NCBI GenBank assembly: GCA_050257375.1
Contig: JBLMWT010000060.1
Span: 1-58,124, forward strand
DNA length: 58,124 nucleotides
Direction of reading: 5' to 3'
Origin: Sphingomonadaceae bacterium
Lineage (GTDB): Bacteria > Pseudomonadota > Gammaproteobacteria > Burkholderiales > SG8-39
The position numbers and the translations under genes were made by a program. Below the pieces are notes generated by a model. The model was given only the letters and a program-made list of their open reading frames with translations, was not told the origin of the DNA and searched no databases. Position 1 is the stretch's first letter. Every line of letters begins with the position of its first letter. Of this stretch, positions 3 through 13,270 are shown piece after piece.

Positions 3-1841
3 GCCTTCGCCGCCGACGGCACGCCCTATTCGACGGCCTACGGCGACGTGTATCACAGCGCCGCGGGCGGCCCCGCGCAGTCGCGCCACGTGTTCCTCGC
101 CGGCAACGGCCTGCCCGGCCGCTGGGCCGGACGACCGGTGTTCACGGTGCTGGAAACCGGCTTCGGCCTGGGGCTCAATCTCCTCGTCACCTGGGCCGCG
201 TGGCGCGCCGACCCGCAGCGCTGCGCGCGGCTGCATTTCGTCTCGGTGGAAAAGCATCCGTTCCGCGGCGCGGATCTCGCGCGGCTGCACGCGCGCTACC
301 CCGAGCTCGCGCCGCTCGCCGCCGAGTTGCGCGCCGCCTGGCCCCTGCTCGTTCCCGGCCTGCACCGGCTCGAATTCGACGGCGGCCGCGTCGTGCTTAC
401 GCTCGCGTTCGCCGACCTGGGCGACGCGCTGCCGCAGCTGCGTCTCGCCGCGGACGCGATCTATCTGGACGGCTTCGCGCCGGCGAAGAACCCCGGGATG
501 TGGTCGCCGCAGGCGCTCAAGGCGCTCGCGCGCCGGGCGGCGCCGGGCGCGAGCGCCGCGACCTGGAGCGCCGCGGGCGCGGTGCGCAGCGCGCTCGAGC
601 AGGCGGGCTTCGAAGTCGAGAAGCGCGCGGGATTCGCCGCCAAGCGCGACATGCTGGTCGCGCGCTACGCGCCGCGCGGGGGGGCGGCGGCTCCGCCCGT
701 CGCGCCGCCCGAGCGCCGCGCGCTGGTGGTCGGCGCGGGCCTCGCCGGCGCGGCAACCTGTGAGCGCCTCGCCGCGCGCGGCTGGGAAGTGACGCTCGTC
801 GAGCGCCGGCGCGAACCGGCGCAGGAGGCCTCGGGCAACCACGCGGGCGTGTTCCACCCGGTGGCGACGCCCGACGACAGCGTGCTCGCGCGCCTGACGC
901 GCGCCGGCTCTCTGTACGCGCTCTCGCGCTGGCGCGCGCTCTCGAGCGCGGCCTGGGCGCCCTGCGGCGTGCTGCAGCTCGCGCGCGACGACGACGAGGA
1001 CGCGGCGCAGCAGCGCGCGCTCGACGCGCTCGGTGCTCCGCGCGAGTATGCGCGCCACGTGACGCGCGCGGAGGCGTCGGAGCTCGCCGGCGCCGAGGTG
1101 GCCAGCGGCGGACTGTGGTTCGGCCCGGCCGGATGGGCGCGCCCGCCCGACCTCGTGCGCGCGCAGATCGCCCATGCGGCGGCCGAGGCCTGCTTCGGCA
1201 TCGAGGTCGCCACGCTCGAGCGCGACGGCGAAACCTGGAGCGCGCGTGACGCGGCGGGCACCCTGATCGCGCGTGCGCCGGTGGTCGTGCTCGCGAACGC
1301 CGCCGACGCGCTGCGCCTCGCTCCCTCGCCGGACATCGCGTTACGCCGCGTGCGCGGCCAGCTGACCCATCTGCCCGCGGAACGCCTGCGCGCGCCGCGG
1401 CTGCCGCTGCTGCGCGGCGGATTCGTACTGCCGGAAGTCGACGGCCTCGTCGTCGCCGGCGCGAGCTACGACTTCGAGGACCCCGATCCCCAGCCGCGCG
1501 CCGAGGGGCATGCCGGCAACCTCGAGCGGCTCGAGCGCATCCTGCCGGGTGCGGCGCGCGGGCTCGATCCCGCGGCGCTCGACGGGCGCGTCGGCTTCCG
1601 CGCGGCGACGCGCGACCGTCTGCCGGTGGTCGGCGCGCTCGCGCCGGGCCTGTATGGCGCGTTCGCCTATGGATCGCGCGGACTGGTGTGGGCGGCGCTC
1701 GCCGCCGAGCTGCTGGCGAGCCTGCTCGAAGGCGAACCGCTGCCGCTTGAGGGAATGCTCGCCGACGCGCTCGATCCGGCGCGCTTTACGCGCCGCCGTT
1801 CATCTCGCCCCTCATCTCGCCCTTCAGCCGACGCGCCATGA
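3..1841 (+). CDS. mnmC: bifunctional tRNA mnm5s2U34 methyltransferase / FAD-dependent cmnm5s2U oxidoreductase MnmC (5' end cut by window edge)
   Basis: The frame of ORF 48..1841 stays open back to base 3 (AFAADGTPYSTAYGDVYHSAAGG). It has an N-terminal SAM-MTase part (LETGFGLGLN, DGFAPAKNPGMWS) followed by a DAO-type FAD domain (VVGAGLAGAA). Confidence 0.88.
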   Translation, partial: AFAADGTPYSTAYGDVYHSAAGGPAQSRHVFLAGNGLPGRWAGRPVFTVLETGFGLGLNLLVTWAAWRADPQRCARLHFVSVEKHPFRGADLARLHARYPELAPLAAELRAAWPLLVPGLHRLEFDGGRVVLTLAFADLGDALPQLRLAADAIYLDGFAPAKNPGMWSPQALKALARRAAPGASAATWSAAGAVRSALEQAGFEVEKRAGFAAKRDMLVARYAPRGGAAAPPVAPPERRALVVGAGLAGAATCERLAARGWEVTLVERRREPAQEASGNHAGVFHPVATPDDSVLARLTRAGSLYALSRWRALSSAAWAPCGVLQLARDDDEDAAQQRALDALGAPREYARHVTRAEASELAGAEVASGGLWFGPAGWARPPDLVRAQIAHAAAEACFGIEVATLERDGETWSARDAAGTLIARAPVVVLANAADALRLAPSPDIALRRVRGQLTHLPAERLRAPRLPLLRGGFVLPEVDGLVVAGASYDFEDPDPQPRAEGHAGNLERLERILPGAARGLDPAALDGRVGFRAATRDRLPVVGALAPGLYGAFAYGSRGLVWAALAAELLASLLEGEPLPLEGMLADALDPARFTRRRSSRPSSRPSADAP

Positions 1842-2607
1842 GGCGCGCGTAGAGCGCCGGCGCAAGGCGGCTGACCCACCACGCGAGGCGGGCGGTGCGA
1901 CCATGAAGCAGCAGGCGCTGTCCGCGGCGCGCTGCACGATAGATGTCCTCGGCCACCGCTTCGGGCGCCGCGCGAGCGCCGACGACCTGCTGCGCGTGGC
2001 GCGCGGGCGCGCCGTCCGCGCCGAGCGCGTTGCGGTCGATCCCGGTGGCGATGAACGCGGGGCATACCAGCAGCACGTCGACGCCGCTGTCGACCAGCTC
2101 GGTGCGCAGGCTGTCGAAGAAACCGTGCAGAGCGTGCTTGCTCGCCGCGTAGCCGGTGCGCGCGATCAGCGGCGAGAACCCGGCCACGCTCGAAATGGCC
2201 ACGATCAGGCCGCGGGTGCGCACGAGGTCGCCGAGCGCGGCGCGCGTGCAGTGAACTGCGCCGAAGAAATTGACCTCCATGACGCGCCGGATCACCGCCG
2301 GCTCGGTCGCCGCGTACGCGCTGCGGTGCGAGATGCCGGCGTTGTTGACCAGCACGTGCACCGGCCCGAGCTGCGCCGAGACGCGCGAAAGCGCCTGCTC
2401 GCACTGCCCGGCGTCGCTGACGTCGCAGGCCAGGCCGAGCGCGCCGCCGCCAATCCGCGCCGCGCCCTGCTCGGCGGCCGCCCCATCGCGATCGAGCAAC
2501 GCCACGCGCGCGCCGCCTGCGGCGAAGCGCGCGGCGAGCGCCTTCCCCAGCCCGCCGGCGGCGCCGGTCACGACGACGACCTTGTCGCGGAAGTCACGCC
2601 GCGCCAC
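1786..2607 (-). CDS. short-chain dehydrogenase/reductase (classical SDR)
   Basis: It has a GTG start and overlaps the upstream gene by 14 nt. Motifs seen are TGAAGGLG (cofactor binding), NNAGI and YAASK (catalytic Tyr-x3-Lys). Confidence 0.85.
   Translation of the reverse strand: MARRDFRDKVVVVTGAAGGLGKALAARFAAGGARVALLDRDGAAAEQGAARIGGGALGLACDVSDAGQCEQALSRVSAQLGPVHVLVNNAGISHRSAYAATEPAVIRRVMEVNFFGAVHCTRAALGDLVRTRGLIVAISSVAGFSPLIARTGYAASKHALHGFFDSLRTELVDSGVDVLLVCPAFIATGIDRNALGADGAPARHAQQVVGARAAPEAVAEDIYRAARRGQRLLLHGRTARLAWWVSRLAPALYARLMARRLKGEMRGEMNGGA
1799..1822. repeat. 12-bp tandem duplication (ttcatctcgccc / ctcatctcgccc, 11/12 identical)
   Basis: Read directly. It lies inside the 56-bp convergent overlap of the mnmC and SDR 3' ends and encodes SSRP-SSRP on + and GEMR-GEMN on -. 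Confidence 0.8.
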
Positions 2608-3547
2608 TGCGACTCCTCGCGCGACGGTAGAGATCGAAGGTCTCGGACGAAGTGAGGCGCGGCGTATAGCCGAAGACCTCTTTCAGGCGCCGGTTGTCGA
2701 GCACCGGCCGGTAGCGCAGAAAGCGCACCTGCTCGGGCCCGTACTGCGACAGTCCGAGCGGCTTCGCCAGCGCGAGCGCGCCGGCGATCGCCCAGGCAGG
2801 GAGCTCGACGCAGGGCTTGCCGAGGCGCGCAGCGATCTCGCGCATGGCGAGCGCGCCGTCGCCCGCGACGTTGAACACTCCCTCGCGTCCCTCCTCCAGC
2901 GCCAGGAGAAGACAGGCGACGACGTCCTGGTCCCAGGCGAACACGAACGGGCTGTCCGCTCCGCGCACCGCGATCAGGCGCGGCTTGTCGAACAGGTCGG
3001 TGATCTGGTTGCGTGTGGTCTCGCCCAGGATGGTGCCCACGCGCAGCACCACCTGCGCCATGCGCGGGTGCGCGGCGCGGTAGCCGGAGAGCATCTCCTC
3101 GACCAAGCGCTTGTGCCAGGCATAGGCGAACTCGCGGTTGCCGCGCAGCGGCTGGTCCTCGTCGATCAGCGGCGGGTTGTCGGCATGGTAGCCGTAGGCG
3201 GCGCCGCTCGAGGTGACGACGAACTTCGCCACGCCGGCCTCGACGCAGGCCTCGAGCACGTTCTTCGTCCCCAGCACGTCGACCGAATATTCGTGCTCGC
3301 GCGAGCTGCGCCTGCCCGGGGTGACGATCGAGGCGAGGTGCGCGACCGCGTCGACGCCGTGCGCGCGCATCACGTCGGCGAGCCCCGGGTCGCGCACGTC
3401 GCGCGCCAGGTATTCGACCCCCTTCAGGCGCGCGACGGCAGGCGGCCCGCGCAGGTCGAGCGCAAGCACCGGCCGCCCGCACCGTGCGAGCTCGGCGACC
3501 AGCAGCCTCCCGAGGTAGCCGCCGGCGCCGGTGACCAGGACCGTCAT
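2594..3547 (-). CDS. NAD-dependent epimerase/dehydratase-fold (extended SDR) protein
   Basis: The start MTVLVTGAGGYLG at 3547 is in frame with ORF 2594..4198 and forms an ATGA overlap with the upstream stop. It carries a GxxGxxG Rossmann motif and YAWHK (Y-x3-K). Confidence 0.85.
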   Translation of the reverse strand: MTVLVTGAGGYLGRLLVAELARCGRPVLALDLRGPPAVARLKGVEYLARDVRDPGLADVMRAHGVDAVAHLASIVTPGRRSSREHEYSVDVLGTKNVLEACVEAGVAKFVVTSSGAAYGYHADNPPLIDEDQPLRGNREFAYAWHKRLVEEMLSGYRAAHPRMAQVVLRVGTILGETTRNQITDLFDKPRLIAVRGADSPFVFAWDQDVVACLLLALEEGREGVFNVAGDGALAMREIAARLGKPCVELPAWAIAGALALAKPLGLSQYGPEQVRFLRYRPVLDNRRLKEVFGYTPRLTSSETFDLYRRARSRSGAA

Positions 3548-4455
3548 GCCGGAGCGAGCAAAGGCGGGCGGCGCGACCAGGTGCCCGCCACGGTCAACCC
3601 CGCGACGATGTGCCAGATCCCCCACCACGCCGTGACCACCGCCATCCCGCCCAGGCCGTCGAAGTAACCGAAGATCAGGATCAGGCCGAGCCCGGAGTTC
3701 TGGATCCCGCACTCGATCGAGACCGCGCGCCGATCGCGCTCGGGCAGTCCCGCGGCGCGCGCCAGGCCGTACCCGGTCGCGAGCGCGAGCGCGTTGTGCA
3801 CGAACACGATGCCGACCACCGTGCCGACGTAGGCGACGAAGTACTGCCAGTTGGCCGCGAGCGCCGCCAGCACGAACACGACGAAGAACCCGAGCGAGAA
3901 GACCTTGAACGGCTTCACCGCGCGCGCGGTGAAGCGCGGAAAGCGGCGCGAGACGAGCAGCCCCGCCGCGAGCGGCGCGCCGAGCAGCAGCAGCACGTGG
4001 GCGAACATCTCGAGGGGGTTGACCGAGACCGCGCGCAGGATCGGCTGCGCCGGCCCGTACAGGCCGCCCCAGAAGGCCACGTTGAGCGGCGTCATGACGA
4101 TCGCGGCGAGCGTCGACAACGTGCTGATCGACACCGACAGCGCGGTGTTGCCGCGCGCGAGATGAGTCAGGAAGTTCGAGATGTTGCCTGCCGGGCACGA
4201 CGACACCAGGATCATGCCGAGCGCGATGCTCGGGCGCGGCTCGAGCGCGAGCACCAGCAGATAGGTCGCGGCCGGAAACACCACGTGGTGGCCGAGCAGG
4301 CCGATCGCCAGCGCGCGCGGCGTGGCGAGCGCCGCCTTGAAGTCGGCGGGCTTGAGCTCGAGCGAAACGCCGAACATCACCAGCCCGAGGATCACGTTCA
4401 GCGCGAGCAGCGTCTGCGGGTTGAAGTTGAGCCGCACCAGGTCGATGTCGCTCAT
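3544..4455 (-). CDS. bile acid:sodium symporter (BASS/SBF, YocS-like) family transporter
   Basis: A 303-aa polytopic membrane protein. The N-terminus LNVILGLVMFGVSLELKPADF and the SSCPAGNISN segment are typical of the SBF family. Confidence 0.82.
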   Translation of the reverse strand: MSDIDLVRLNFNPQTLLALNVILGLVMFGVSLELKPADFKAALATPRALAIGLLGHHVVFPAATYLLVLALEPRPSIALGMILVSSCPAGNISNFLTHLARGNTALSVSISTLSTLAAIVMTPLNVAFWGGLYGPAQPILRAVSVNPLEMFAHVLLLLGAPLAAGLLVSRRFPRFTARAVKPFKVFSLGFFVVFVLAALAANWQYFVAYVGTVVGIVFVHNALALATGYGLARAAGLPERDRRAVSIECGIQNSGLGLILIFGYFDGLGGMAVVTAWWGIWHIVAGLTVAGTWSRRPPLLAPA

Positions 4456-4459
4456 GACG

Positions 4460-6214
4460 CTACTTCCCGGCGGGCTCCTCGTGCATTTTCTTGAAGTGCA
4501 GCAGTCCCGGCGCCCACATGTGCTTCACCGGATCGACGTCGACGTGGATCACCGCGCAGCGGCCCGCGGCCAGGCTGCGCTCGAGCGCCGGCCCGAGTTC
4601 GGCGGGATCGGCGACGCGCTCGCCGTGCGCGCCCATCGCCTCGGCCAGCTTGTCGAAAGCGATCTCGCCCAGGTCGGCCTTGATCGTCTCCTCGGGCCCG
4701 AGCGACTTCATGATCAACGTCTTGAGCGGCCGCAGCATGAACTGCTGGTTCATCTTCACCATGCCCCACTGCCGATCGCACAGCACCAGGTACACCACGC
4801 GCAGCCCGTTGCGGATCGCGGTCTCGATCTCCTGAGGATGAAATCCCATCGCGCCGTCGCCGATGATGCAGCACACCGGGCGCTCCGGGCGCGCGGCCGC
4901 CGCCCCGAGCGCCTGCGCGACGCCGGCGCCGAGCATGCCGAACTTGAAGGTCGATAGCAGCGTGTTCGGCACCCGCACCTGGTGGTAGAACATCGCCCAG
5001 ATCGCCGCGTTGCCGCCGTCGGCGACCAGTACCGCGTCGTCGCCGAACGCCTTCTGGCAGGCGTGCGCGACGTGCGCGGGATTCATTGGCGCGGCGCGGT
5101 CCTCGAGCCGTTTGTCGAGCTCGGCGCGCTCGGCGCGGCGCGCCACGGCGTACTTCGCGACCCTCGCCCTGCGCGGCTCGAGCCGCATCGCGGCGGACCG
5201 TGTTTCGAGGCGCTCGGCGAGCTGCGCGAGGAACACCTTCGCATCTGCGAGCACCGCCAGCGCAGCGGGCTTCGCTGCGCCGAGCGCGGCGCCGTCGACA
5301 TCGACCTGGATCATCTTTTGCCCCGCGGGCGGGCGCCAGTACGGCGCCTTGCCCCACCAGTCGGTCTCGCCCAGCCGCGAGCCCACGCACAGCACCACGT
5401 CGGCGTCGTTGCGCACCTCGTGGTTGAGCTTGACGTGGATCATCGGCACGCACAGCTCGGAAGTCTCGGGCAGCGCGCCGCGCGCGCCCCAGCTGGTGGT
5501 GACCGGCGCGTGCAGCAGCTCGGCCACCCGCGCGAGCTCCGCAAAAGCGCCGGCATGCACCACTCCGCTTCCCGCGTGGACCATCGGCGCCTCGGCCGCG
5601 GTCAGCATCTCGGCGGCGCGCTCGACGTCGCCGGGCGCCGGGTGCGGCGCGCTCGCACGGCGGTATTCGGACGGCGCCCACAGCGCCGGCTCGCCCTTGA
5701 ACGCGCCGTTCATGATGTTCTCCGGCACGTCGAGGTGGACCACGCCGGGACGCCCCTCCCAGCAGGCGCGCAATGCCGCGCGCATGAGCTCGGGAATGCG
5801 CTCGTAGGACGGGGCGGCGCGGCTCCACTTCGCGAACGCGGACACGACGCCGGACTGGTCGAAGCTCTGGTAGGCGCCGGGCCGCTCGGGATAACTCAAT
5901 CCGGTGCGGCGCGCGCTGCTCACGCACAGCACGCGGTTGCCCTCGGCCTGCTCGACCACCAGTCCGGGCAGCACGTTCGCCACCCCCGGGCCGTTCGACG
6001 CCATGCACACGCCGAGCTGGCCGGTCATTCGTGCGTACGCACCCGCCATGTGCGCTGCGCTGGTCTCGTGGCGCGGCGTGACGATATCGATGCCGAGCCG
6101 GTGCAGCGCCGCGTAGAAGCCGAAATAAGTGCCGTCGATGATGCCGAAGACCTTGGTGACGCCTTCGGCCTGCAGCATGCGCGCGATCAGCTCGCCGCCT
6201 GAATGTTCCGCCAT
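4460..6214 (-). CDS. thiamine-pyrophosphate-dependent enzyme (acetolactate synthase / oxalyl-CoA decarboxylase / 2-hydroxyacyl-CoA lyase superfamily; subfamily not assignable)
   Basis: The start MAEHSGGELIARMLQAEGV at 6214 is in frame with ORF 4460..7963. It has an N-terminal Pyr domain (PRHETSAAHMAGAYAR, SNGPGVANV) and a C-terminal GDGAM ThDP/Mg motif. Confidence 0.85.
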   Translation of the reverse strand: MAEHSGGELIARMLQAEGVTKVFGIIDGTYFGFYAALHRLGIDIVTPRHETSAAHMAGAYARMTGQLGVCMASNGPGVANVLPGLVVEQAEGNRVLCVSSARRTGLSYPERPGAYQSFDQSGVVSAFAKWSRAAPSYERIPELMRAALRACWEGRPGVVHLDVPENIMNGAFKGEPALWAPSEYRRASAPHPAPGDVERAAEMLTAAEAPMVHAGSGVVHAGAFAELARVAELLHAPVTTSWGARGALPETSELCVPMIHVKLNHEVRNDADVVLCVGSRLGETDWWGKAPYWRPPAGQKMIQVDVDGAALGAAKPAALAVLADAKVFLAQLAERLETRSAAMRLEPRRARVAKYAVARRAERAELDKRLEDRAAPMNPAHVAHACQKAFGDDAVLVADGGNAAIWAMFYHQVRVPNTLLSTFKFGMLGAGVAQALGAAAARPERPVCCIIGDGAMGFHPQEIETAIRNGLRVVYLVLCDRQWGMVKMNQQFMLRPLKTLIMKSLGPEETIKADLGEIAFDKLAEAMGAHGERVADPAELGPALERSLAAGRCAVIHVDVDPVKHMWAPGLLHFKKMHEEPAGK

Positions 6215-6258: not shown

Positions 6259-9102
6259 CTAACCGCCGCTCAAGGCCCTGAAGTCGATGCGCGCCGCGGC
6301 CGCATCCGGCTCGCCGGCGCGCGCCAGGATCGCCTCGCGCGCGCGGTCGCGCAGCCGGATCGCGGCATGCCAGTCGTTGCCGTCGGGGCGGATGGGCTCG
6401 CACACCAGTACTTCGAGCCGCCCGGGGCGCGGGAACCAGATGCCGTCCGGCAGCATGCCGCGCGTGCCGCGCATCACGACCGGCACCACCGCGCAGCCCG
6501 CCCGGACCGCCGTCACGAACGCTCCCATGCGAAACGGCAGCAACCCGGGATCGCGCCGCTGCGTGCCTTCCGGGAACACGAGCGGCAACGTTCCCTCGCG
6601 CGCGCGCGCCTCGATCGTCTGGTGGTCTTCGACGCTGCGCGCGACGTCGACGCGCTCGACGAACACGCTGCCCCGGCGCCCGAGCAGCGTGCCGGCGAAG
6701 AATTGCGGAGCGAGCTCGCGCTTGGCGACGAAGGCGATGCGCGGGGGCAGCGCCGCGCTGAGCAGCACGCCGTCGAGATAGCTCGCGTGGTTCGAGATGA
6801 CCACCGCGTTCGGCTCGCGCGCGAGGCGCTCGGCGCCCTCGACGCGCGGCGTCACGCCCCACAGCGCGAACAGCAGCCGCGCTGCGCCGCGCGCGATTCG
6901 GCGCGCACGCGGGGGGTGCCGCGTCGCCGCGATCATCAGCCACGCGGGCAGCATGACGAGGACGAGGCTCGTCCACGCCCAGACGCCCCAGACAAACTCG
7001 CCCGCGCGCGCCAGGGCGCCACGCGCGCGCCCCGCGATGCCCTCGGCCGCGAGCAGCGCGAGCTGCAGCCAGGCCGGACGCGGTGCCGCGACGCCCAGCT
7101 CGCCGCGCTCGTACTGCTCGCGGCAGGCGGCGCGCCGGATCTTGCCGCTCGAAGTCTTGAGCACCGTGCGTGGCGGCGCGAGCACCACCTCGTCGGCCGG
7201 CATCCCGGCCAGATCGACCGCCAGCTGGTTGATATCTGCGACGATGCGCGCGCGCTCCTCGGGTTTCGTCTCGCGCGTCTCGGCGAGAACGACCAGGCGC
7301 TCGGTGCCCGTGCGCCGGTCGCTCGCGGCGAACACGGCGACGCCGCCGTGGCGCACGCCGCGCACCTCGCCGACGGCCTCTTCCAGCTCCATGGGGTGGA
7401 TGTTGTGCCCGGCGCGGATGATCAGGTCCTTTGCGCGCCCGGTGATGAACAGCTCGCCGCCGGCGAGGTAGCCGAGGTCCCCGGTATTTCGCCAGGCGCC
7501 GTCGACGAGGCGCGCGGTCTCCTCCGGATTCTCGAAGTAGCCGCTGGTCGCCGACGGCCCCGCGAACTGCACCCTGCCCTGCGTGCGCTCGCCGAGCTCG
7601 CGCCCGCGCTCGTCGACCACGCGCACCGCGTGGCCGGGCAGCGCACGGCCGCAGGCCACCAGGCGCAGCGGCAGCGGATCGTCCTCGCGCGCCAGGCGCG
7701 CCACGCCGTGGCGCTGGAAGTGCGCGCGGTCGATGCGCTCGACGAGCACGCCGCGTTCGAGCGGCGGGAAGGTGGTGCCCAGGCAGCACTCCGCGAGCCC
7801 GTAGACCGGGGTCATCGCCTCGCGCCTGAAGCCGTAGCGCGCGAAGCGCTCGCAGAAGCGCTCGACCGTGTCCGGGCTCACCGCCTCGGCACCATTGAAC
7901 GACAGCCGCAGCGAGGAGAGGTCCAGTCCGTCGAGCTCTTGCTCGGAGAGCTTCGTCAGGCACAGCTCATAGGCGAAGTTCGGCGCGGACGTCATCGTCC
8001 CGCGATGCTGCTGGACGCGCCGCAGCCAGCGCGCCGGGCGCGACAGGAAGGCGAGCGGCGACATCAGCACGAGCGGGTACGCATACAGCATCGAGCCCAG
8101 GCATGCGCCGATGAGGCCCATGTCGTGGTACAGCGGCAGCCAGGACACAAAGTTGTCCGCGGAGGTGACGCGCGCCGCCGTTCCCATCGCGCGCAGGTTG
8201 GCGAGCAGATTCGCGTGCGTCAGCACCACGCCCTTGGGGCGTCCGGTACTGCCCGAGGTGTACTGCAGGAACGCGGTGTCGCCAGGCAGCGCGCGGTGCG
8301 TCGGGGCCGCACCGTCGGCGGTGAGCACCTCGGCGACCGTCGCCACGTGGCGCAGCGATCCGGCGTGCGCCTGCAGGACGTGGGCGAAGGTCTTCGCCTG
8401 CTCGATGGTGACGAACAGGTGCGCCCCGCAGTTGGCGACGATGCCAGCTATGCGCCGGAAATGCTGCTCGAGCTGCGCTGGGCGGGCCGGCGGATAGAGC
8501 GGCACCGGGACCGCGCCGATGCGCAGCGCGCCGTAGAAAGCGACGAAGAACTCGCGGCTCGTGGGCAGCATGATCGCGACGCGCTCGCCGACAACGACGC
8601 CGCGCGCCGCCAGCCCGGCGCCGAAGGCGCGCGCGGCTTCCGCGAGCGCACCGTAGCTGATCTCCTCGGCTGCGTCGCGCTCGCCGTAGAGCGTGATGTG
8701 CACGCGCTCCGGGTGGCGCTCGGTGTGCCAGTCGAAGGCCTCGAGGAGCGTGCTCACCGATGCGGGCGCCGAATCGACCGCCTCGGCCGCAGGCGCCGGC
8801 GCCGCCCGGGCCGGCGCCGGAGGCTCGGCGGCCGGCGCATGAGCGACGAATGCGAGCAGATCGCGCGGCGTCTCGGCCTCGCTGAACGCCGCCTCCGGAA
8901 GGCGCACGCCCCACGACTGCTCGATGCGAGCCGCGAGCTCGACTCGCGCCAGGCTGTCCAGCCCGTAGTCGCGCTCGAGCGAGTGATCCAGCCCGAGCGT
9001 GTCGACGCGCGTGTCCTGCGGGTGCAGCTCGCGCGCCAAGGCGCGCAGCAACTCGAGCAGCCGCTCGCCGGCGGGATCCTGCCGTGCGTCCGCGGCCTTC
9101 AA
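6259..9102 (-). CDS. tri-domain protein: acyl carrier (PP-binding) + AMP-dependent fatty-acid adenylase/ligase + TM segment + 1-acyl-glycerol-3-phosphate-type (LPLAT/PlsC) acyltransferase
   Basis: Features in order: an ACP-like GLDSL serine near aa 50, an Ala/Pro linker, YTSGSTGRPKGV and SSGKIRR adenylation motifs, the hydrophobic stretch WGVWAWTSLVLVMLPAWLMIAA, then NHASYLD and FPEGT acyltransferase motifs. The only plausible start upstream of the carrier helix is TTG at 9102, which overlaps the prs stop (TTGA). Confidence 0.8.
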   Translation of the reverse strand: MKAADARQDPAGERLLELLRALARELHPQDTRVDTLGLDHSLERDYGLDSLARVELAARIEQSWGVRLPEAAFSEAETPRDLLAFVAHAPAAEPPAPARAAPAPAAEAVDSAPASVSTLLEAFDWHTERHPERVHITLYGERDAAEEISYGALAEAARAFGAGLAARGVVVGERVAIMLPTSREFFVAFYGALRIGAVPVPLYPPARPAQLEQHFRRIAGIVANCGAHLFVTIEQAKTFAHVLQAHAGSLRHVATVAEVLTADGAAPTHRALPGDTAFLQYTSGSTGRPKGVVLTHANLLANLRAMGTAARVTSADNFVSWLPLYHDMGLIGACLGSMLYAYPLVLMSPLAFLSRPARWLRRVQQHRGTMTSAPNFAYELCLTKLSEQELDGLDLSSLRLSFNGAEAVSPDTVERFCERFARYGFRREAMTPVYGLAECCLGTTFPPLERGVLVERIDRAHFQRHGVARLAREDDPLPLRLVACGRALPGHAVRVVDERGRELGERTQGRVQFAGPSATSGYFENPEETARLVDGAWRNTGDLGYLAGGELFITGRAKDLIIRAGHNIHPMELEEAVGEVRGVRHGGVAVFAASDRRTGTERLVVLAETRETKPEERARIVADINQLAVDLAGMPADEVVLAPPRTVLKTSSGKIRRAACREQYERGELGVAAPRPAWLQLALLAAEGIAGRARGALARAGEFVWGVWAWTSLVLVMLPAWLMIAATRHPPRARRIARGAARLLFALWGVTPRVEGAERLAREPNAVVISNHASYLDGVLLSAALPPRIAFVAKRELAPQFFAGTLLGRRGSVFVERVDVARSVEDHQTIEARAREGTLPLVFPEGTQRRDPGLLPFRMGAFVTAVRAGCAVVPVVMRGTRGMLPDGIWFPRPGRLEVLVCEPIRPDGNDWHAAIRLRDRAREAILARAGEPDAAAARIDFRALSGG

Positions 9103-10004
9103 CGCGCAGCGAGCCGTGTGAGCGCCGCCGCGAGCAGCGGCGCGATGCCGATCACCTCGAGGCGCGCCACCGGCGGCACCGGGACGCTGTCGGTGGTCGC
9201 CACGCGCCCGAGGCGCGCCGCGCCGAGGCGCTCGAGCGCCCCGGGGGCAAGCACTGCGTGCACGAACATCGCGTGCACCGACCGGGCGCCCGCGGGGCGC
9301 AGCGCCTCCGCTGCGGCGGCGATCGTCCCGCCGGTGCTCGCCATGTCGTCCAGAATCACGCAGTCGCGCCCTCGCACGTCGCCGAGCACCTCGAGCGCTT
9401 GCGCGACATCGGCGCGCGGGCGCGTCTTGGCGAGCACTGCGAGCGGCGCACCGAGCGCGTTCGCGCAGCGCTGCGCACGCTTCAGGCCGCCCGCGTCGGG
9501 CGACACGATCATCGGGTTGGGCAGCGCCCAGGCGCGCAGCGCCGGCAGCAGGGCCTCGTCGGCGAGCAGGTGCGCGACCGGCATGGGAAAGGCGCTCTCG
9601 AGCGCCGGCGAATGCAGCTCGAGCGCGACCAGCCGGTCGACGCCCGCGGCGGCCAGCAGGCGCGCGGCAAGCTGCGCCGAACGCGGCTCGCCCGGATGCT
9701 TGCGCACGTCCTGGCGCGCATAACCGAAGTACGGCACGAGCGCGGTGATCCGCGCCGCGCCCGCGGTGCGCGCCGCGTCGACCATCAGCGCGAGCGTCAT
9801 CAGGCGCTCGTTGGTCGGCGCGCAGGTCGGCTGCAGGACGTAGAGATCGGCGCCGGCCAGCTCGCCGTCGATGCGCACCCGGGTCTCGCCGTCGGCGAAC
9901 GCCGCAACCGGGCACGGCAGCAGCGGAGCGCCGCAGCGCCGCGCCAACTCGGCGGCGAGCGCGGGATGCGCGTCCCCGGCTAGCACCACGGGCCCGGCGT
10001 TCAT
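9099..10004 (-). CDS. prs: ribose-phosphate pyrophosphokinase (PRPP synthetase) paralog
   Basis: The start MNAGPVV at 10004 forms an ATGA overlap with the upstream stop. It aligns by eye with E. coli Prs (FADGE..V, PYFGYARQD, VSPDAGG, DDMASTGGT). It is not in the usual housekeeping prs gene context. Confidence 0.85.
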   Translation of the reverse strand: MNAGPVVLAGDAHPALAAELARRCGAPLLPCPVAAFADGETRVRIDGELAGADLYVLQPTCAPTNERLMTLALMVDAARTAGAARITALVPYFGYARQDVRKHPGEPRSAQLAARLLAAAGVDRLVALELHSPALESAFPMPVAHLLADEALLPALRAWALPNPMIVSPDAGGLKRAQRCANALGAPLAVLAKTRPRADVAQALEVLGDVRGRDCVILDDMASTGGTIAAAAEALRPAGARSVHAMFVHAVLAPGALERLGAARLGRVATTDSVPVPPVARLEVIGIAPLLAAALTRLAAR

Positions 10005-10672
10005 TCCCGGCTCTCGCTCCCGAGGTAGCGCGTGAACCAGCGTCCGGCGTGGCGCGCCGCCTCTTCGAGCGCACCCGCCTCCGCAAAGAGATGAGTTGCG
10101 CCCGGAATCACCACCAGCTCCTTCACGCCCGCCAGCCGCTTGAGGGCATCGCGGTTCCACTCGAGTACTTGCTCGTCTTTTTCCCCGACGATGAGCAGCG
10201 TCGGCGCCTTCACGCGCGCGAGCGCACCCGCTGCGAGGTCTGGCCTGCCGCCGCGGGAAACCACCGCAGCGACGATCTGCGGCGATTCGGCCGCAGCCCA
10301 CAGCGCCGCGGCGGCGCCGGTGCTCGCGCCGAAATAGCCGAGCGGCAGCGCGGCGGTGAACGCCTGAGCGCGCAGCCAGCGCGCAGCGGCGAGCAGGCGG
10401 GATGCGAGCAGCCCGACGTCGAACACCTTGTCCTGGTCCCTGGCCTCGTCTTCCTCGAGCAGATCGATGAGCAGCGTGGCGAGGCTCAGCCTGCGAAACT
10501 CCTGCGCGACGAAGCGGTTGCGCGGACTGTAGCGCCCGCTGCCGCTGCCGTGGGCGAACGCGATCGCGCCGCGCGCGTGCTCTGGCACGCGCAGCTCGCC
10601 GCGCACCTCGCGTCCGCCGGATGCGATGCTCACTTCCACGACCGTCGGCGGCGGATCGGTCGGACGGCTCAT
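10001..10672 (-). CDS. dienelactone-hydrolase-family alpha/beta hydrolase
   Basis: 223 aa, with HGSGSG, a GASTG nucleophile elbow and a C-terminal GATHLF histidine motif. Confidence 0.78.
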   Translation of the reverse strand: MSRPTDPPPTVVEVSIASGGREVRGELRVPEHARGAIAFAHGSGSGRYSPRNRFVAQEFRRLSLATLLIDLLEEDEARDQDKVFDVGLLASRLLAAARWLRAQAFTAALPLGYFGASTGAAAALWAAAESPQIVAAVVSRGGRPDLAAGALARVKAPTLLIVGEKDEQVLEWNRDALKRLAGVKELVVIPGATHLFAEAGALEEAARHAGRWFTRYLGSESRE

Positions 10673-10810: not shown

Positions 10811-13270
10811 ATGAACAAGGCGTCCAAGACCGCGCGGCACGCGCTCGCTCCGTCGGAGTTGCGCTGCACGTGCGACCCCGAACAGTTCGGCTTCAAGACG
10901 ACCGCTGAGCTGGAGGAACTCGGCGAGGCACTGGGGCAGCGGCGCGCGCTCGATGCGATCCGGTTCGGCATCGGCATTCGGCAGGAAGGCTACAACCTGT
11001 TCGCGATGGGCCCCGAAGGCGTAGGACGGCGCAGCGTGGTGCGCCACTTCCTCGAGCAGCAGGCGCCGGCGAGCGAGGTGCCGCCCGACTGGTGCTACGT
11101 ATTCAATTTCGAGACGCCGCACAAGCCGCGCGCGCTGAAGTTCCCGTCGGGGCAAGCGGCGAAGTTCAAGCGCAGCATGCAGCGTCTGGTCGAGGACCTG
11201 CGCGCCGGCATCCCGGCGGCATTCGAGACCGAGGAGTACCGCGCGCGACGGCAGGAGATCGAGAACGCATTCAGCGAGCACCAGGAGCAGGCATTCGGGG
11301 CGATCGGCGAGCGTGCCAAGGAGCAGGGCATCGCGCTGCTGCGCACGCCGGGCGGCTTCGGCTTCGCGCCGATGCGCGAGGACGCGGTGCTCAGCCCGCA
11401 GGAGTTCCACAAGCTGCCCACCTCTGAGCAAAAGCGGCTGGAAGACGCGATCGCCGCCCTGCAGGAAGAGCTCGAAGGGGTGATCCACGAGGTCCCGAAG
11501 TGGCGCCGCGAAGCGCTGCACAAGCTGAGAGAGCTCAACCGCGGCGTCACCAAGACCGCGGTCAACAGCTTGATCGAGGAGCTGAAGGCCGAGTACGAGT
11601 CTCTGCCGCAGGTGCGCGCGTACCTCGGCGCCGTGCAGGAGGACGTGCTCGACCACGCTGAATCCTTTCAGCAGCCCAAGGAAGGCGAGCAGCCGACGCT
11701 GTTCGGCATTCCGCTGCCGCAGGCGGAGAGCGCCGAGCAGCCGCTGCGCCGCTACGCAGTGAACGTGCTGATCGGGCACGAGGATGCCAAGGGCGCGCCG
11801 ATCGTCTTCGAGGACAATCCGACGCACAGCAACCTGACCGGTCGCATCGAGCACATCGCGCAGATGGGCACGCTGGTCACCGACTTCACGCTCATCAAGG
11901 CGGGCGCGCTGCACCGCGCGAACGGCGGCTTCCTCGTGGTCGACGCGCTCAGGCTGCTGATGCAGCCCTTCGCCTACGAAGCGCTCAAGCGCGCGCTGCG
12001 CTCGCACGAGATCCGCACCGAGTCGCTCGGGCAGATGCTCAGCCTGGTGAGCACGGTGTCGCTCGAGCCCGAGCCGATCCCGCTCGACGTGAAGATCGTG
12101 CTCGTGGGACAAAGGCTGCTCTATTACCTCCTGCACGAGCACGACCCGGAGTTCGGCGAGCTGTTCAAGGTGGCGGTCGACTTCGAAGAGGACATGGCGC
12201 GCGACGCGCAGAGCGACCTGCTCTATGCGCGCGTCATCGCCACCATCGCCCGGCGCGAGAAGCTGCGCCCGCTGTCGCGCGCTGCGGTGGCGCGCGTGGT
12301 GGAGCGCGGCGCGCGCGACGCGGGCGACGCCGACAAGGTGTCGGTGCAGATGCGCGGCCTGGCCGACCTGCTGCGCGAGTCCGACTACTGGGCGGGCGTC
12401 AACCGGCGCGACGTGGTCGCCGCCGAGGACGTGCAGCGCGCGATCGACGCGCAACAGGATCGCTCGGGGCGCATCCGCGCGCGCCTGCAGGAAGAGATCC
12501 TGCGCGGCAGGCTGCTGATCGACACCGATGGCGCACGCAGCGGCCAGGTGAATGCGCTCGCGGTAGTGCAGCTCGGTGGCTACGCCTTCGGCGTGCCGCA
12601 CCGCGTCACGGCGCGCACGCGCCTGGGCGGAGGCCGCGTGGTCGACATCGAACGCGAGTCCGAGCTCGGCGGACCCATCCACTCGAAGGGCGTGCTCATC
12701 CTCTCCGGCTTCGTCTCGGGCCGCTATGCCGCAGCCAAGCCGTTGTCGCTCGCCGCGAGCCTGGTGTTCGAGCAAAGTTATGGCGGCGTGGAAGGCGACA
12801 GCGCGTCCTCGGCCGAGCTGTACGCACTGCTGTCGTCGCTCGCGGACACCCCGGTGAAGCAGTCGCTCGCCATCACCGGCTCGGTCAACCAGCACGGCGA
12901 CGTGCAAGCGATCGGCGGCGTGAATGAGAAGATCGAGGGCTTCTTCGACGTCTGCGCGGCGCGCGGGCTGACCGGCGCGCAGGGGGTGCTCATTCCCGAG
13001 TCGAACCGCCGCAACCTCATGCTGCGCCACGACGTGATCGAGGCGGTCGCGAAAGGCAAGTTCCACATCTACGCAGTGTCCACGATCGACCAGGGGATCG
13101 AGATCCTGACCGGCGTGCCGGCGGGCGAGCGTGACGCGACGGGGCAGTTCCCGCCGGGCACGATCAATCACCGGGTCGAGCAGCGCCTGTCGGACTACGC
13201 CGAGCGGCTGCGCACCTTCGGCGCCGCCGGTGCGCCACGCAAGACCTGGCGCAGGGAGCCGCAGAAGTGA
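10811..13270 (+). CDS. Lon-like (LonB/COG1067-type) AAA+ protease homolog
   Basis: 819 aa, with GGAGG 8 nt upstream of the ATG. It has an N-terminal AAA-like region (GPEGVGRRS) and a C-terminal S16 Lon protease domain (GDSASSAELYALLS, GGVNEKIEGFF). Confidence 0.85.
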   Translation: MNKASKTARHALAPSELRCTCDPEQFGFKTTAELEELGEALGQRRALDAIRFGIGIRQEGYNLFAMGPEGVGRRSVVRHFLEQQAPASEVPPDWCYVFNFETPHKPRALKFPSGQAAKFKRSMQRLVEDLRAGIPAAFETEEYRARRQEIENAFSEHQEQAFGAIGERAKEQGIALLRTPGGFGFAPMREDAVLSPQEFHKLPTSEQKRLEDAIAALQEELEGVIHEVPKWRREALHKLRELNRGVTKTAVNSLIEELKAEYESLPQVRAYLGAVQEDVLDHAESFQQPKEGEQPTLFGIPLPQAESAEQPLRRYAVNVLIGHEDAKGAPIVFEDNPTHSNLTGRIEHIAQMGTLVTDFTLIKAGALHRANGGFLVVDALRLLMQPFAYEALKRALRSHEIRTESLGQMLSLVSTVSLEPEPIPLDVKIVLVGQRLLYYLLHEHDPEFGELFKVAVDFEEDMARDAQSDLLYARVIATIARREKLRPLSRAAVARVVERGARDAGDADKVSVQMRGLADLLRESDYWAGVNRRDVVAAEDVQRAIDAQQDRSGRIRARLQEEILRGRLLIDTDGARSGQVNALAVVQLGGYAFGVPHRVTARTRLGGGRVVDIERESELGGPIHSKGVLILSGFVSGRYAAAKPLSLAASLVFEQSYGGVEGDSASSAELYALLSSLADTPVKQSLAITGSVNQHGDVQAIGGVNEKIEGFFDVCAARGLTGAQGVLIPESNRRNLMLRHDVIEAVAKGKFHIYAVSTIDQGIEILTGVPAGERDATGQFPPGTINHRVEQRLSDYAERLRTFGAAGAPRKTWRREPQK

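Follow-up and report, generated by a model that had tools for sequence, protein, structure and literature searches.

A carrier domain, a fatty acyl-AMP ligase and a PlsC-type acyltransferase in a single, putatively membrane-anchored bacterial polypeptide: conserved features and a proposed route for coenzyme A-independent acyl transfer

The window analyzed here, a stretch of 58,124 nucleotides (positions 1 to 58,124 of contig JBLMWT010000060.1, assembly GCA_050257375.1) from a Sphingomonadaceae bacterium placed by GTDB in the Burkholderiales (SG8-39), carries on its minus strand a reading frame of 947 codons. The encoded protein joins a carrier domain, a fatty acyl-AMP ligase (FAAL), a hydrophobic helical segment and a lysophospholipid acyltransferase (LPLAT) domain in one chain. 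A preliminary description, made from the sequence alone, had proposed the coordinates, length and domain order of this carrier/adenylase/transmembrane/acyltransferase polypeptide, and open reading frame (ORF) analysis together with a Pfam scan confirmed all three. The coordinates of the gene, its parts and its neighbors are collected in Table 1. The PP-binding domain of the carrier, whose presence the same description had left to a domain scan, was found at residues 32–86 above its cut-off of 20.8 bits. AMP-binding was matched at residues 123–523 with 243 bits, AMP-binding_C_3 weakly at residues 561–665, and the Acyltransferase domain at residues 753–877 with 95.8 bits (cut-off 23). Each of the motifs reported earlier is present at the position given for it, namely GLDSL with Ser50, YTSGSTGRPKGV (residues 281–292), SSGKIRR (651–657), NHASYLD (771–777) and FPEGT (843–847). 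The G+C content of the gene is 73.5%, compared with 69% for the whole window.

Table 1. Location of the gene, its predicted parts and the adjoining genes in the window (nt, nucleotides; aa, amino acid residues)
Feature	Residues (aa)	Position (nt)	Strand	Basis or remark
Whole coding sequence, carrier-linker-FAAL-membrane helices-LPLAT	1–947	6259..9102	minus	947 aa; TTG 9100-9102, TAG 6259-6261
Carrier (PP-binding) domain	13–87	8842..9066	minus	PF00550, 40.9 bits; S50 in 81/81
Predicted phosphopantetheine-attachment Ser50 codon	50	8953-8955	minus	GLDSL motif
Ala/Pro-rich linker, HAPAAEPPAPARAAPAPAAEAVDSAPASVS	88–117	8752..8841	minus	No secondary structure in AF2 model; 18% identity
Fatty acyl-AMP ligase domain	118–668	7099..8751	minus	Pfam AMP-binding, 5.5e-72; PRK09192; 3PBK
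FAAL-specific insertion, DRAHFQRHGVARLAREDDPLPLRLVAC	458–484	7651..7731	minus	Relative to FadD; gapless against EcFAAL
Equivalent of FAAL-specific helix, PLAFLSRP	349–356	8035..8058	minus	EcFAAL alignment; AF2 helix 349–354
Predicted membrane-anchoring helices	677–747	6862..7074	minus	Kyte-Doolittle and AF2
PlsC-type (LPLAT) acyltransferase	753–877	6472..6846	minus	PF01553, 2.4e-27; PDB 5KYM, 4e-20
Motif I, NHASYLD		6772-6792	minus	H772 and D777 in 83/83
Motif III, FPEGTQR		6556-6576	minus	E845 in 83/83
TTGA overlap of TTG start with prs TGA stop		9099..9102	minus	Context cgTTGAagg
prs-like gene (ribose-phosphate diphosphokinase), upstream		9099..10004	minus	TIGR01251, 290 bits vs 113
Thiamine diphosphate (ThDP) enzyme		4460-6214	minus	Downstream block, variable insertion
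BASS/SBF transporter		3544-4455	minus	Downstream block
NAD epimerase/3beta-HSD-like		2594-3547	minus	Downstream block; weak OleD and HpnA similarity
Short-chain dehydrogenase/reductase (SDR)		1786-2607	minus	Downstream block, then convergent mnmC

Residue conservation was counted over 83 homologues from many phyla, 81 of which have their N-terminus on the contig. Mean identity across the family is 48% for the carrier, 55% for the FAAL and 46% for the acyltransferase, and the predicted catalytic residues stand out within these domains: Ser50 is found in every homologue with an N-terminus, and the A10 lysine (Lys654), His772, Asp777, Arg817 and Glu845 in all 83. Because these residues are conserved while the linker is only 18% identical, the three modules are evidently kept functional together, under joint purifying selection, and none looks vestigial. 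Ser50 lies within a near-invariant stretch of the family alignments, LERD[FY]GLDSLARVEL. In an AlphaFold2 (AF2) model of the full-length protein (mean pLDDT 80.4) the carrier region folds into a small helical bundle (helices 10–26, 31–35, 50–64, 70–75 and 79–87) with pLDDT mostly between 77 and 92. The low identity of residues 88–117 and their lack of modeled secondary structure mark this segment as a flexible tether. An HMMER search with the carrier and linker returned 416 cluster representatives at E ≤ 1e-10, the top matches being mostly 90–300 residues long, aligned from their own N-terminus and indistinguishable from gene fragments on short contigs.

Translation of the carrier depends on where the gene starts. 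The open frame extends to 10110; within it lie GTG codons at 9915 and 10074, a TTG at 10086 and, downstream of 9102, two TTGs at 9051 and 9039 (codons 18 and 22), within the first helix of the carrier. The earlier statement that neither ATG nor GTG lies upstream and that the TTG overlapping the prs stop is the sole candidate was thus slightly inaccurate, but the choice of this TTG holds, as the other in-frame candidates do not fit the homologues. The starts at 9915, 10074 and 10086 were rejected, as they would add 271–328 residues, translated from the alternative frame of prs, that are absent in all homologues. Homologues begin 8–27 residues ahead of the first carrier helix. Independent evidence comes from three close relatives. 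L086 (82% identity) keeps the same TTGA overlap with prs, and in L087 (85% identity) the start is a GTG located 31 nt past prs. In L085 (91% identity), prs has been precisely deleted between two copies of ATCCCGC (L085:1136-1200 vs window 9060-10004), so that the gene now begins with the prs ATG and the first 15 prs codons, joined in frame just ahead of GERLLELL, with the ATG 17 codons before the first carrier helix. The deletion serves as a natural experiment, from which it follows that about a dozen N-terminal residues can be dispensed with and that prs is no functional partner.

A start at TTG 9051, TTG 9039 or later would leave the carrier truncated or not made at all, and the product would then be a two-domain FAAL-LPLAT protein. 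In favor of such a start, TTG is weak as an initiation codon, TTG 9102 has no visible Shine-Dalgarno motif ahead of it, and the two further TTGs are in frame. We nevertheless regard it as very improbable: both codons fall inside helix 1, where L15, L16, L22 and E25 show no or almost no variation, each homologue begins before this helix, the TTGA overlap of L086 and the prs ATG of L085 both lie upstream of it, and the protein sequence of the region is conserved in the same frame. Supported by the homologue starts and by the three close relatives, TTG 9102 is the best candidate in the window, and the carrier domain is accordingly taken to be translated. Given the lack of a visible Shine-Dalgarno motif, translation is probably initiated by coupling to the termination of prs. 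A search for transcripts covering the N-terminus found the sequence only in DNA runs, from soil and wetland metagenomes, and in no RNA runs.

The adenylation domain contains the core motifs of the ANL superfamily, A3 (YTSGSTGxPKG), A5 (YGLAE), A7 (GD), A8 (GRxKD) and A10 (SGK), the residues of which are present in 82–83 of the 83 homologues. Its best match in the PDB is the E. coli FAAL (EcFAAL, 3PBK), both in sequence (1.2e-90, with about 32% identity over the entire domain) and in fold (TM score 0.82 on the target), and the top 41 Foldseek matches are all FAALs or FAAL-like A-domains. Among the NCBIfam models, those named fatty acyl-AMP ligase rank first; the best, PRK09192, scores 432 bits and is below its cut-off of 600, and the scores of the FadD32, FAAL28 and FAAL21 models are far under their cut-offs. 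Since no named NCBIfam FAAL model reaches its cut-off, the protein is best placed as a member of the FAAL clade outside every named NCBIfam FAAL subfamily. The FAAL-specific insertion, which the preliminary description had proposed to look for, is present as 27 residues that follow the YGLAE motif, ahead of the next strand, when compared with two bona fide FadD acyl-CoA ligases from related loci, and it aligns with EcFAAL without gaps.

Coenzyme A (CoA) is rejected by EcFAAL through W224, M231 and F279, which fill the canonical pocket, and through the FAAL-specific helix T252–R258 together with P107 and P226, prolines of an alternative pocket, as described in a 2021 study (PMC8460268). In the HMMER alignment the three pocket residues correspond to W321, M328 and F376, the two prolines to P205 and P323, and the helix to residues 349–355, which adjoin the pocket-blocking residues and prolines. 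These elements are conserved in 78–83 of the 83 homologues. The adenylation domain is therefore assigned, by its sequence features, as a FAAL rather than an acyl-CoA ligase. As the canonical CoA pocket appears to be blocked in the same way as in characterized FAALs, the acyl group would be passed to the protein's own carrier and not to CoA. It is also conceivable that the circuit is not closed, the adenylase making acyl-CoA or loading a soluble acyl carrier protein (ACP) and the LPLAT domain using a diffusible donor, with the carrier vestigial or serving another partner. Acyl-CoA and acyl-ACP are both common donors in trans for PlsC-type enzymes. According to one paper, FAAL activity is not always separable from that of fatty acyl-CoA ligases (FACL) by sequence (PMC12086093). 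This alternative is nevertheless improbable in our estimation, considering that all of the described CoA-rejection elements are conserved, that the LERD[FY]GLDSLARVEL stretch and its serine are nearly invariant across phyla, unlike what is expected of a vestigial domain, and that the fusion is kept in every homologue examined.

The FAAL is followed by the predicted membrane anchor, in which an amphipathic stretch, a hydrophobic core at residues 703–727 (nt 6922–6996), an HPP turn and a helix at residues 730–747 succeed one another. Residues 703–727 are the sole strongly hydrophobic segment of the protein (Kyte-Doolittle maximum 1.88), and both flanks are rich in arginine. In the AF2 model a long helix (677–726) is followed by the His-Pro-Pro turn and the helix 730–747, which leads into the catalytic core. 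By sequence alignment, the anchor takes the position of the unaligned N-terminal 64 residues of PlsC from Thermotoga maritima (5KYM). The carrier and the FAAL, like the ATP that is consumed, have to be on the cytoplasmic side, and the segment is flanked by positive charge at either end; we therefore infer that the two ends of the anchor are cytoplasmic and that it is monotopic or re-entrant.

Among solved structures, this same T. maritima PlsC is the best match to the acyltransferase domain, and the two share the HX4D, FxxR, EGT and proline motifs. The predicted anchor may likewise correspond to the helical N-terminal segment that fixes PlsC to one leaflet. Motif II reads FVER (R817 in 83/83) and motif IV PVVPV (P874 in 81/83). 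Unlike PlsC, which has EGTR in motif III, the protein in the window has EGTQ, and 81 of the 83 family members have EGT[F/L]; the acyl donor is in addition predicted to be supplied in cis. In PlsC the arginine of EGTR binds the phosphate of lysophosphatidic acid (LPA; PMC6688108), and the family-wide EGT[F/L] signature (residues 845–849, nt 6556–6570) may thus mark a different acceptor. If the acceptor were 1-acyl-glycerol-3-phosphate after all, the protein would perform the same relay as a PlsC isozyme, feeding exogenous fatty acids directly into the de novo synthesis of phosphatidic acid. Both the closest solved structure and the best NCBIfam domain model, that of the 1-acylglycerol-3-phosphate O-acyltransferases (AGP_acyltrn, TIGR00530), point in this direction. 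We consider it unlikely, as TIGR00530 is matched with 87.8 bits against a cut-off of 102.95, the phosphate-binding arginine is replaced by Phe or Leu in 81 of the 83 family members and by Gln here, and the database names given to its members are automatic annotations.

Taken together, the protein is probably an enzyme complete in itself and anchored to the membrane, which activates a fatty acid and, by way of its own carrier, passes the acyl group to a membrane acceptor. In the first step the FAAL domain would adenylate a free long-chain fatty acid with ATP to give acyl-AMP, and in the second the acyl group would be transferred to a phosphopantetheine arm on Ser50 of the N-terminal carrier rather than to CoA. 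Swinging on its linker of about 30 residues, the loaded carrier would then dock on the PlsC-type domain, which the helical anchor would keep on the cytoplasmic side of the inner membrane; there the His772/Asp777 dyad would acylate a hydroxyl (or amine) group of an acceptor embedded in the membrane. The outcome would be an Aas-like re-acylation or remodeling of lysophospholipids that is independent of CoA and of the ACP pool of fatty acid synthase (FAS). For the acceptor, a lysolipid that is not LPA is the most likely candidate, a suggestion based on the missing arginine of motif III and the lack of a conserved neighboring gene (see below), and one in which we place considerably less confidence than in the relay itself. 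The domain content, hallmark residues, joint conservation and start position are established, and from them we infer the individual steps of the chemistry as well as the topology and the acceptor. The closed relay without CoA or soluble ACP had been put forward in the preliminary description, and its sequence-level predictions were borne out (the FAAL insertion, helix and pocket residues, and the invariant serine, lysine and HX4D).

Several observations weigh against this interpretation. The pTM of the AF2 model is 0.61, and the relative placement of the domains in it is unreliable. The start codon lacks a visible Shine-Dalgarno motif, as mentioned. The acyltransferase domain scores below the cut-off of every named NCBIfam model, and our full-text literature search retrieved no functional study of the architecture and no biochemistry on any family member. 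A pairing with LplT was rejected, as the major facilitator superfamily (MFS) gene adjacent to the homologue in the Desulfobulbaceae locus L004 matches no LplT model of NCBIfam. Finally, the gene may be co-transcribed with the ThDP enzyme/BASS/epimerase/SDR block downstream of it, which leaves room for a specialized role confined to its clade.

Of the known systems, Aas from E. coli resembles the proposed enzyme in uniting an adenylate-forming activator and a PlsC-type acyltransferase in one membrane-associated polypeptide, and in leading from fatty acid via acyl-AMP and acyl-ACP to a lysophospholipid with an enzyme-bound donor. The order of domains is however reversed, being carrier-FAAL-acyltransferase here and acyltransferase-adenylase in Aas and LplT-Aas (PRK08043, PRK08633 and PRK06814). 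The order ascribed to Aas in the preliminary description was verified in the models: our acyltransferase aligns to positions 17–140 of the 719-position Aas model, and the adenylase to the C-terminal part of LplT-Aas. Both alignments score far under the cut-offs (30.5 vs 886 bits for PRK08043, acyltransferase part; 139–166 vs 1221–1349 bits for LplT-Aas). Unlike the activator of Aas, which is of the Aas/FACL-like type, the one described here belongs to the FAAL clade and has the insertion and helix, and the carrier is built in, whereas Aas borrows the ACP of FAS. There is also no LplT partner; an unrelated ATG22-type MFS gene adjoins in about 12% of the loci.

The FAAL domain by itself is an ordinary member of the EcFAAL-like clade. 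It shares fold, insertion, helix and pocket residues with FAALs that load a cognate ACP, such as EcFAAL (3PBK) with EcACP, the FAAL from Legionella pneumophila, FadD32 with Pks13 and the olefin synthase FAAL, and like these it is predicted to transfer the acyl group to a phosphopantetheine arm and not to CoA. In those systems the carrier is located downstream or is a separate protein, and the acyl group is handed to a polyketide synthase or nonribosomal peptide synthetase, whereas in the protein described here the carrier stands ahead of the FAAL, and a lipid acyltransferase of the same polypeptide would be the next enzyme to act. The protein is thus a variant on a known theme, that of an adenylating enzyme combined with a carrier and an LPLAT.

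The preliminary description had called the domain order unusual. This is correct relative to E. coli Aas, but not in general, as relatives are encoded in at least 599 species genomes (one genome per species) and the combination is mentioned in two FAAL surveys. At least 120 full-length proteins with 55–97% identity and the same three Pfam domains were found in the protein database, and the 80 loci retrieved from the species genomes encode full-length relatives, almost all of them covering query residues ~15 to ~935. The gene occurs in Beta-, Gamma- and Alphaproteobacteria, Desulfobacterota, Actinomycetota, Nitrospira, Entotheonella, Acidobacteriota, Planctomycetia and others, its nearest named relatives being Betaproteobacteria. 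The two surveys refer to fusions of a FAAL with a lysophospholipid (LPAT_AGPAT-like) acyltransferase as unusual or as typical of one clade, and neither gives them a function (PMC8460268, PMC12820801). The architecture is therefore common and already noticed, so that no categorical novelty can be claimed for it, and it is functionally uncharacterized; of the earlier proviso that it might prove common and already characterized, only the first half applies. A match of 1183 residues in locus L008, examined for extra domains, was resolved into a protein of 960 residues followed by a separate gene.

If the proposed mechanism is correct, hundreds of bacterial species, including nitrifiers, methanotrophs, sulfur oxidizers, sulfate reducers and some actinomycetes, can insert free fatty acids into membrane lipids with one protein, bypassing both acyl-CoA and the ACP pool of fatty acid synthase. 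It would also be the first role assigned to a FAAL outside polyketide and lipopeptide pathways in ordinary proteobacteria, a question raised by the two surveys. The activity would bear on the scavenging of exogenous fatty acids, on membrane repair after phospholipase or oxidative damage and on the extent to which inhibition of FAS II can be bypassed, and the protein offers a compact model for the shuttling of a carrier domain between soluble and membrane-bound active sites.

The genes surrounding the family were compared by all-against-all clustering of ORFs in 85 loci, by tblastn with the neighbors from the window and from L004, and by Pfam scans of 269 neighboring ORFs (131 downstream and 138 upstream). 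In about 80 loci, none of these approaches revealed a neighbor conserved across the family. A conserved operon was accordingly rejected, as the only recurrent neighbors are the ATG22-type MFS, which occurs in about 10 of the 80 loci and usually on the same strand, and FadD-like ligases, which occur in about five. The gene in the window has no adjoining MFS gene. The absence of a conserved neighbor suggests that the acceptor is a common cellular lipid, and the enzyme evidently needs no dedicated partner.

Downstream of the gene in the window lie the four genes of the ThDP/BASS/epimerase/SDR block, with no terminator-like site between the gene and the block. The ThDP enzyme is under all NCBIfam cut-offs, the nearest models being acetolactate synthase-like and sulfoacetaldehyde acetyltransferase-like. 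This block (1786-6214) is common only to the window and to L003 (74% identity); it is absent from the closer relatives L085, L086 and L087, in which mnmC directly follows the gene, and from all 80 distant loci. As an obligate biosynthetic partner it was rejected on the ground that the closer relatives lack it.

These neighbors bear on a different view of the enzyme, according to which it would serve a specialized lipid pathway instead of housekeeping repair, be it an ether-lipid pathway as for ElbD, an aminolipid pathway as for OlsA, or, in the clade of the window alone, the acylation of a product that the proteins of the ThDP block make or import. ElbD from Myxococcus xanthus contains fatty acyl reductase (FAR), acyl-CoA synthetase (ACS), ACP and AGPAT-like domains and takes part in the biosynthesis of ether lipids (PMC9131029, PMC11948995); its ACS and ACP activities have been shown in vitro (PMC9131029). 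It is the only genetically studied bacterial protein we found that, like the one described here, unites acyl-activating, carrier and AGPAT-like domains, and its operon includes NAD epimerase/dehydratase genes (PMC9131029, PMC11948995). A same-strand NAD epimerase and an SDR lie downstream in the window and in L003, an epimerase/NAD_binding_4 gene adjoins in L004, and OlsA models are the second-best match of the LPLAT domain. Compared by its published description, however, ElbD has an N-terminal fatty acyl reductase and the order ACS-ACP-AT, was purified as a soluble protein and is encoded in the elbA-E operon. The protein in the window has an N-terminal carrier, a predicted hydrophobic anchor and no conserved operon, and a Pfam search of its 947 residues at E ≤ 0.1 gave no match to a FAR/NAD_binding_4 domain. 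The OlsA score is 54 against a cut-off of 300, the four-gene block is missing from L085, L086, L087 and the distant loci, and no epimerase, HAD or OlsB-type neighbor is enriched across the family. A specialized pathway of this kind is accordingly a doubtful explanation for the family.

A further idea, to which we give similarly little credence, is that the family as a whole makes a distinct acyl-lipid rather than repairing ordinary phospholipids. The hydrophobic residue found in motif III would in that case be due to an acceptor that carries no phosphate or is otherwise unusual, and in the clade of the window the four-gene block would make or import that acceptor. If this were true, the family would constitute a widespread, CoA-independent, one-protein route from free fatty acids to a new class of membrane lipid.

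In some loci the gene is found next to other genes with a possible link to fatty acids. A canonical FadD gene, with 815 bits to the FadD model, precedes it in the Desulfobulbaceae locus L004 (6088-9981), in Sulfuriferula (L001, 8224-9909) and in Polaromonas (L005). L004 and L005 contain, in addition, a gene for a membrane protein of 260 residues with faint similarity to ceramidases, and L004 also the ATG22-type MFS. The surroundings in these three loci possibly represent a cluster for the uptake and recycling of fatty acids.

In the whole 58-kb window (1-58124) we found no rRNA or tRNA genes and no Rfam match at the gathering threshold. Sequences near-identical to the window were found in soil, marsh and wetland metagenome runs only. 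In one cluster of homologues (P0016) the gene is split into parts of 559 and 374 residues (P0126 and P0127) on one 1.5-Mb contig, which is probably an assembly frameshift and not a natural split. The presence of prs next to the gene is variable: it is found in L086 and L087, is deleted in L085 and is replaced by LUD genes in L003. In the window, a dienelactone-hydrolase-like gene (10001-10672, minus strand) overlaps the start of the prs-like gene, and the two adjoin a divergent gene for a LonC-type protease (10811-13270, plus strand). The same hydrolase/prs/LonC trio is present in L087, together with a gene for a CBS-domain protein, and the prs of the window seems to be an accessory gene and not the housekeeping one.

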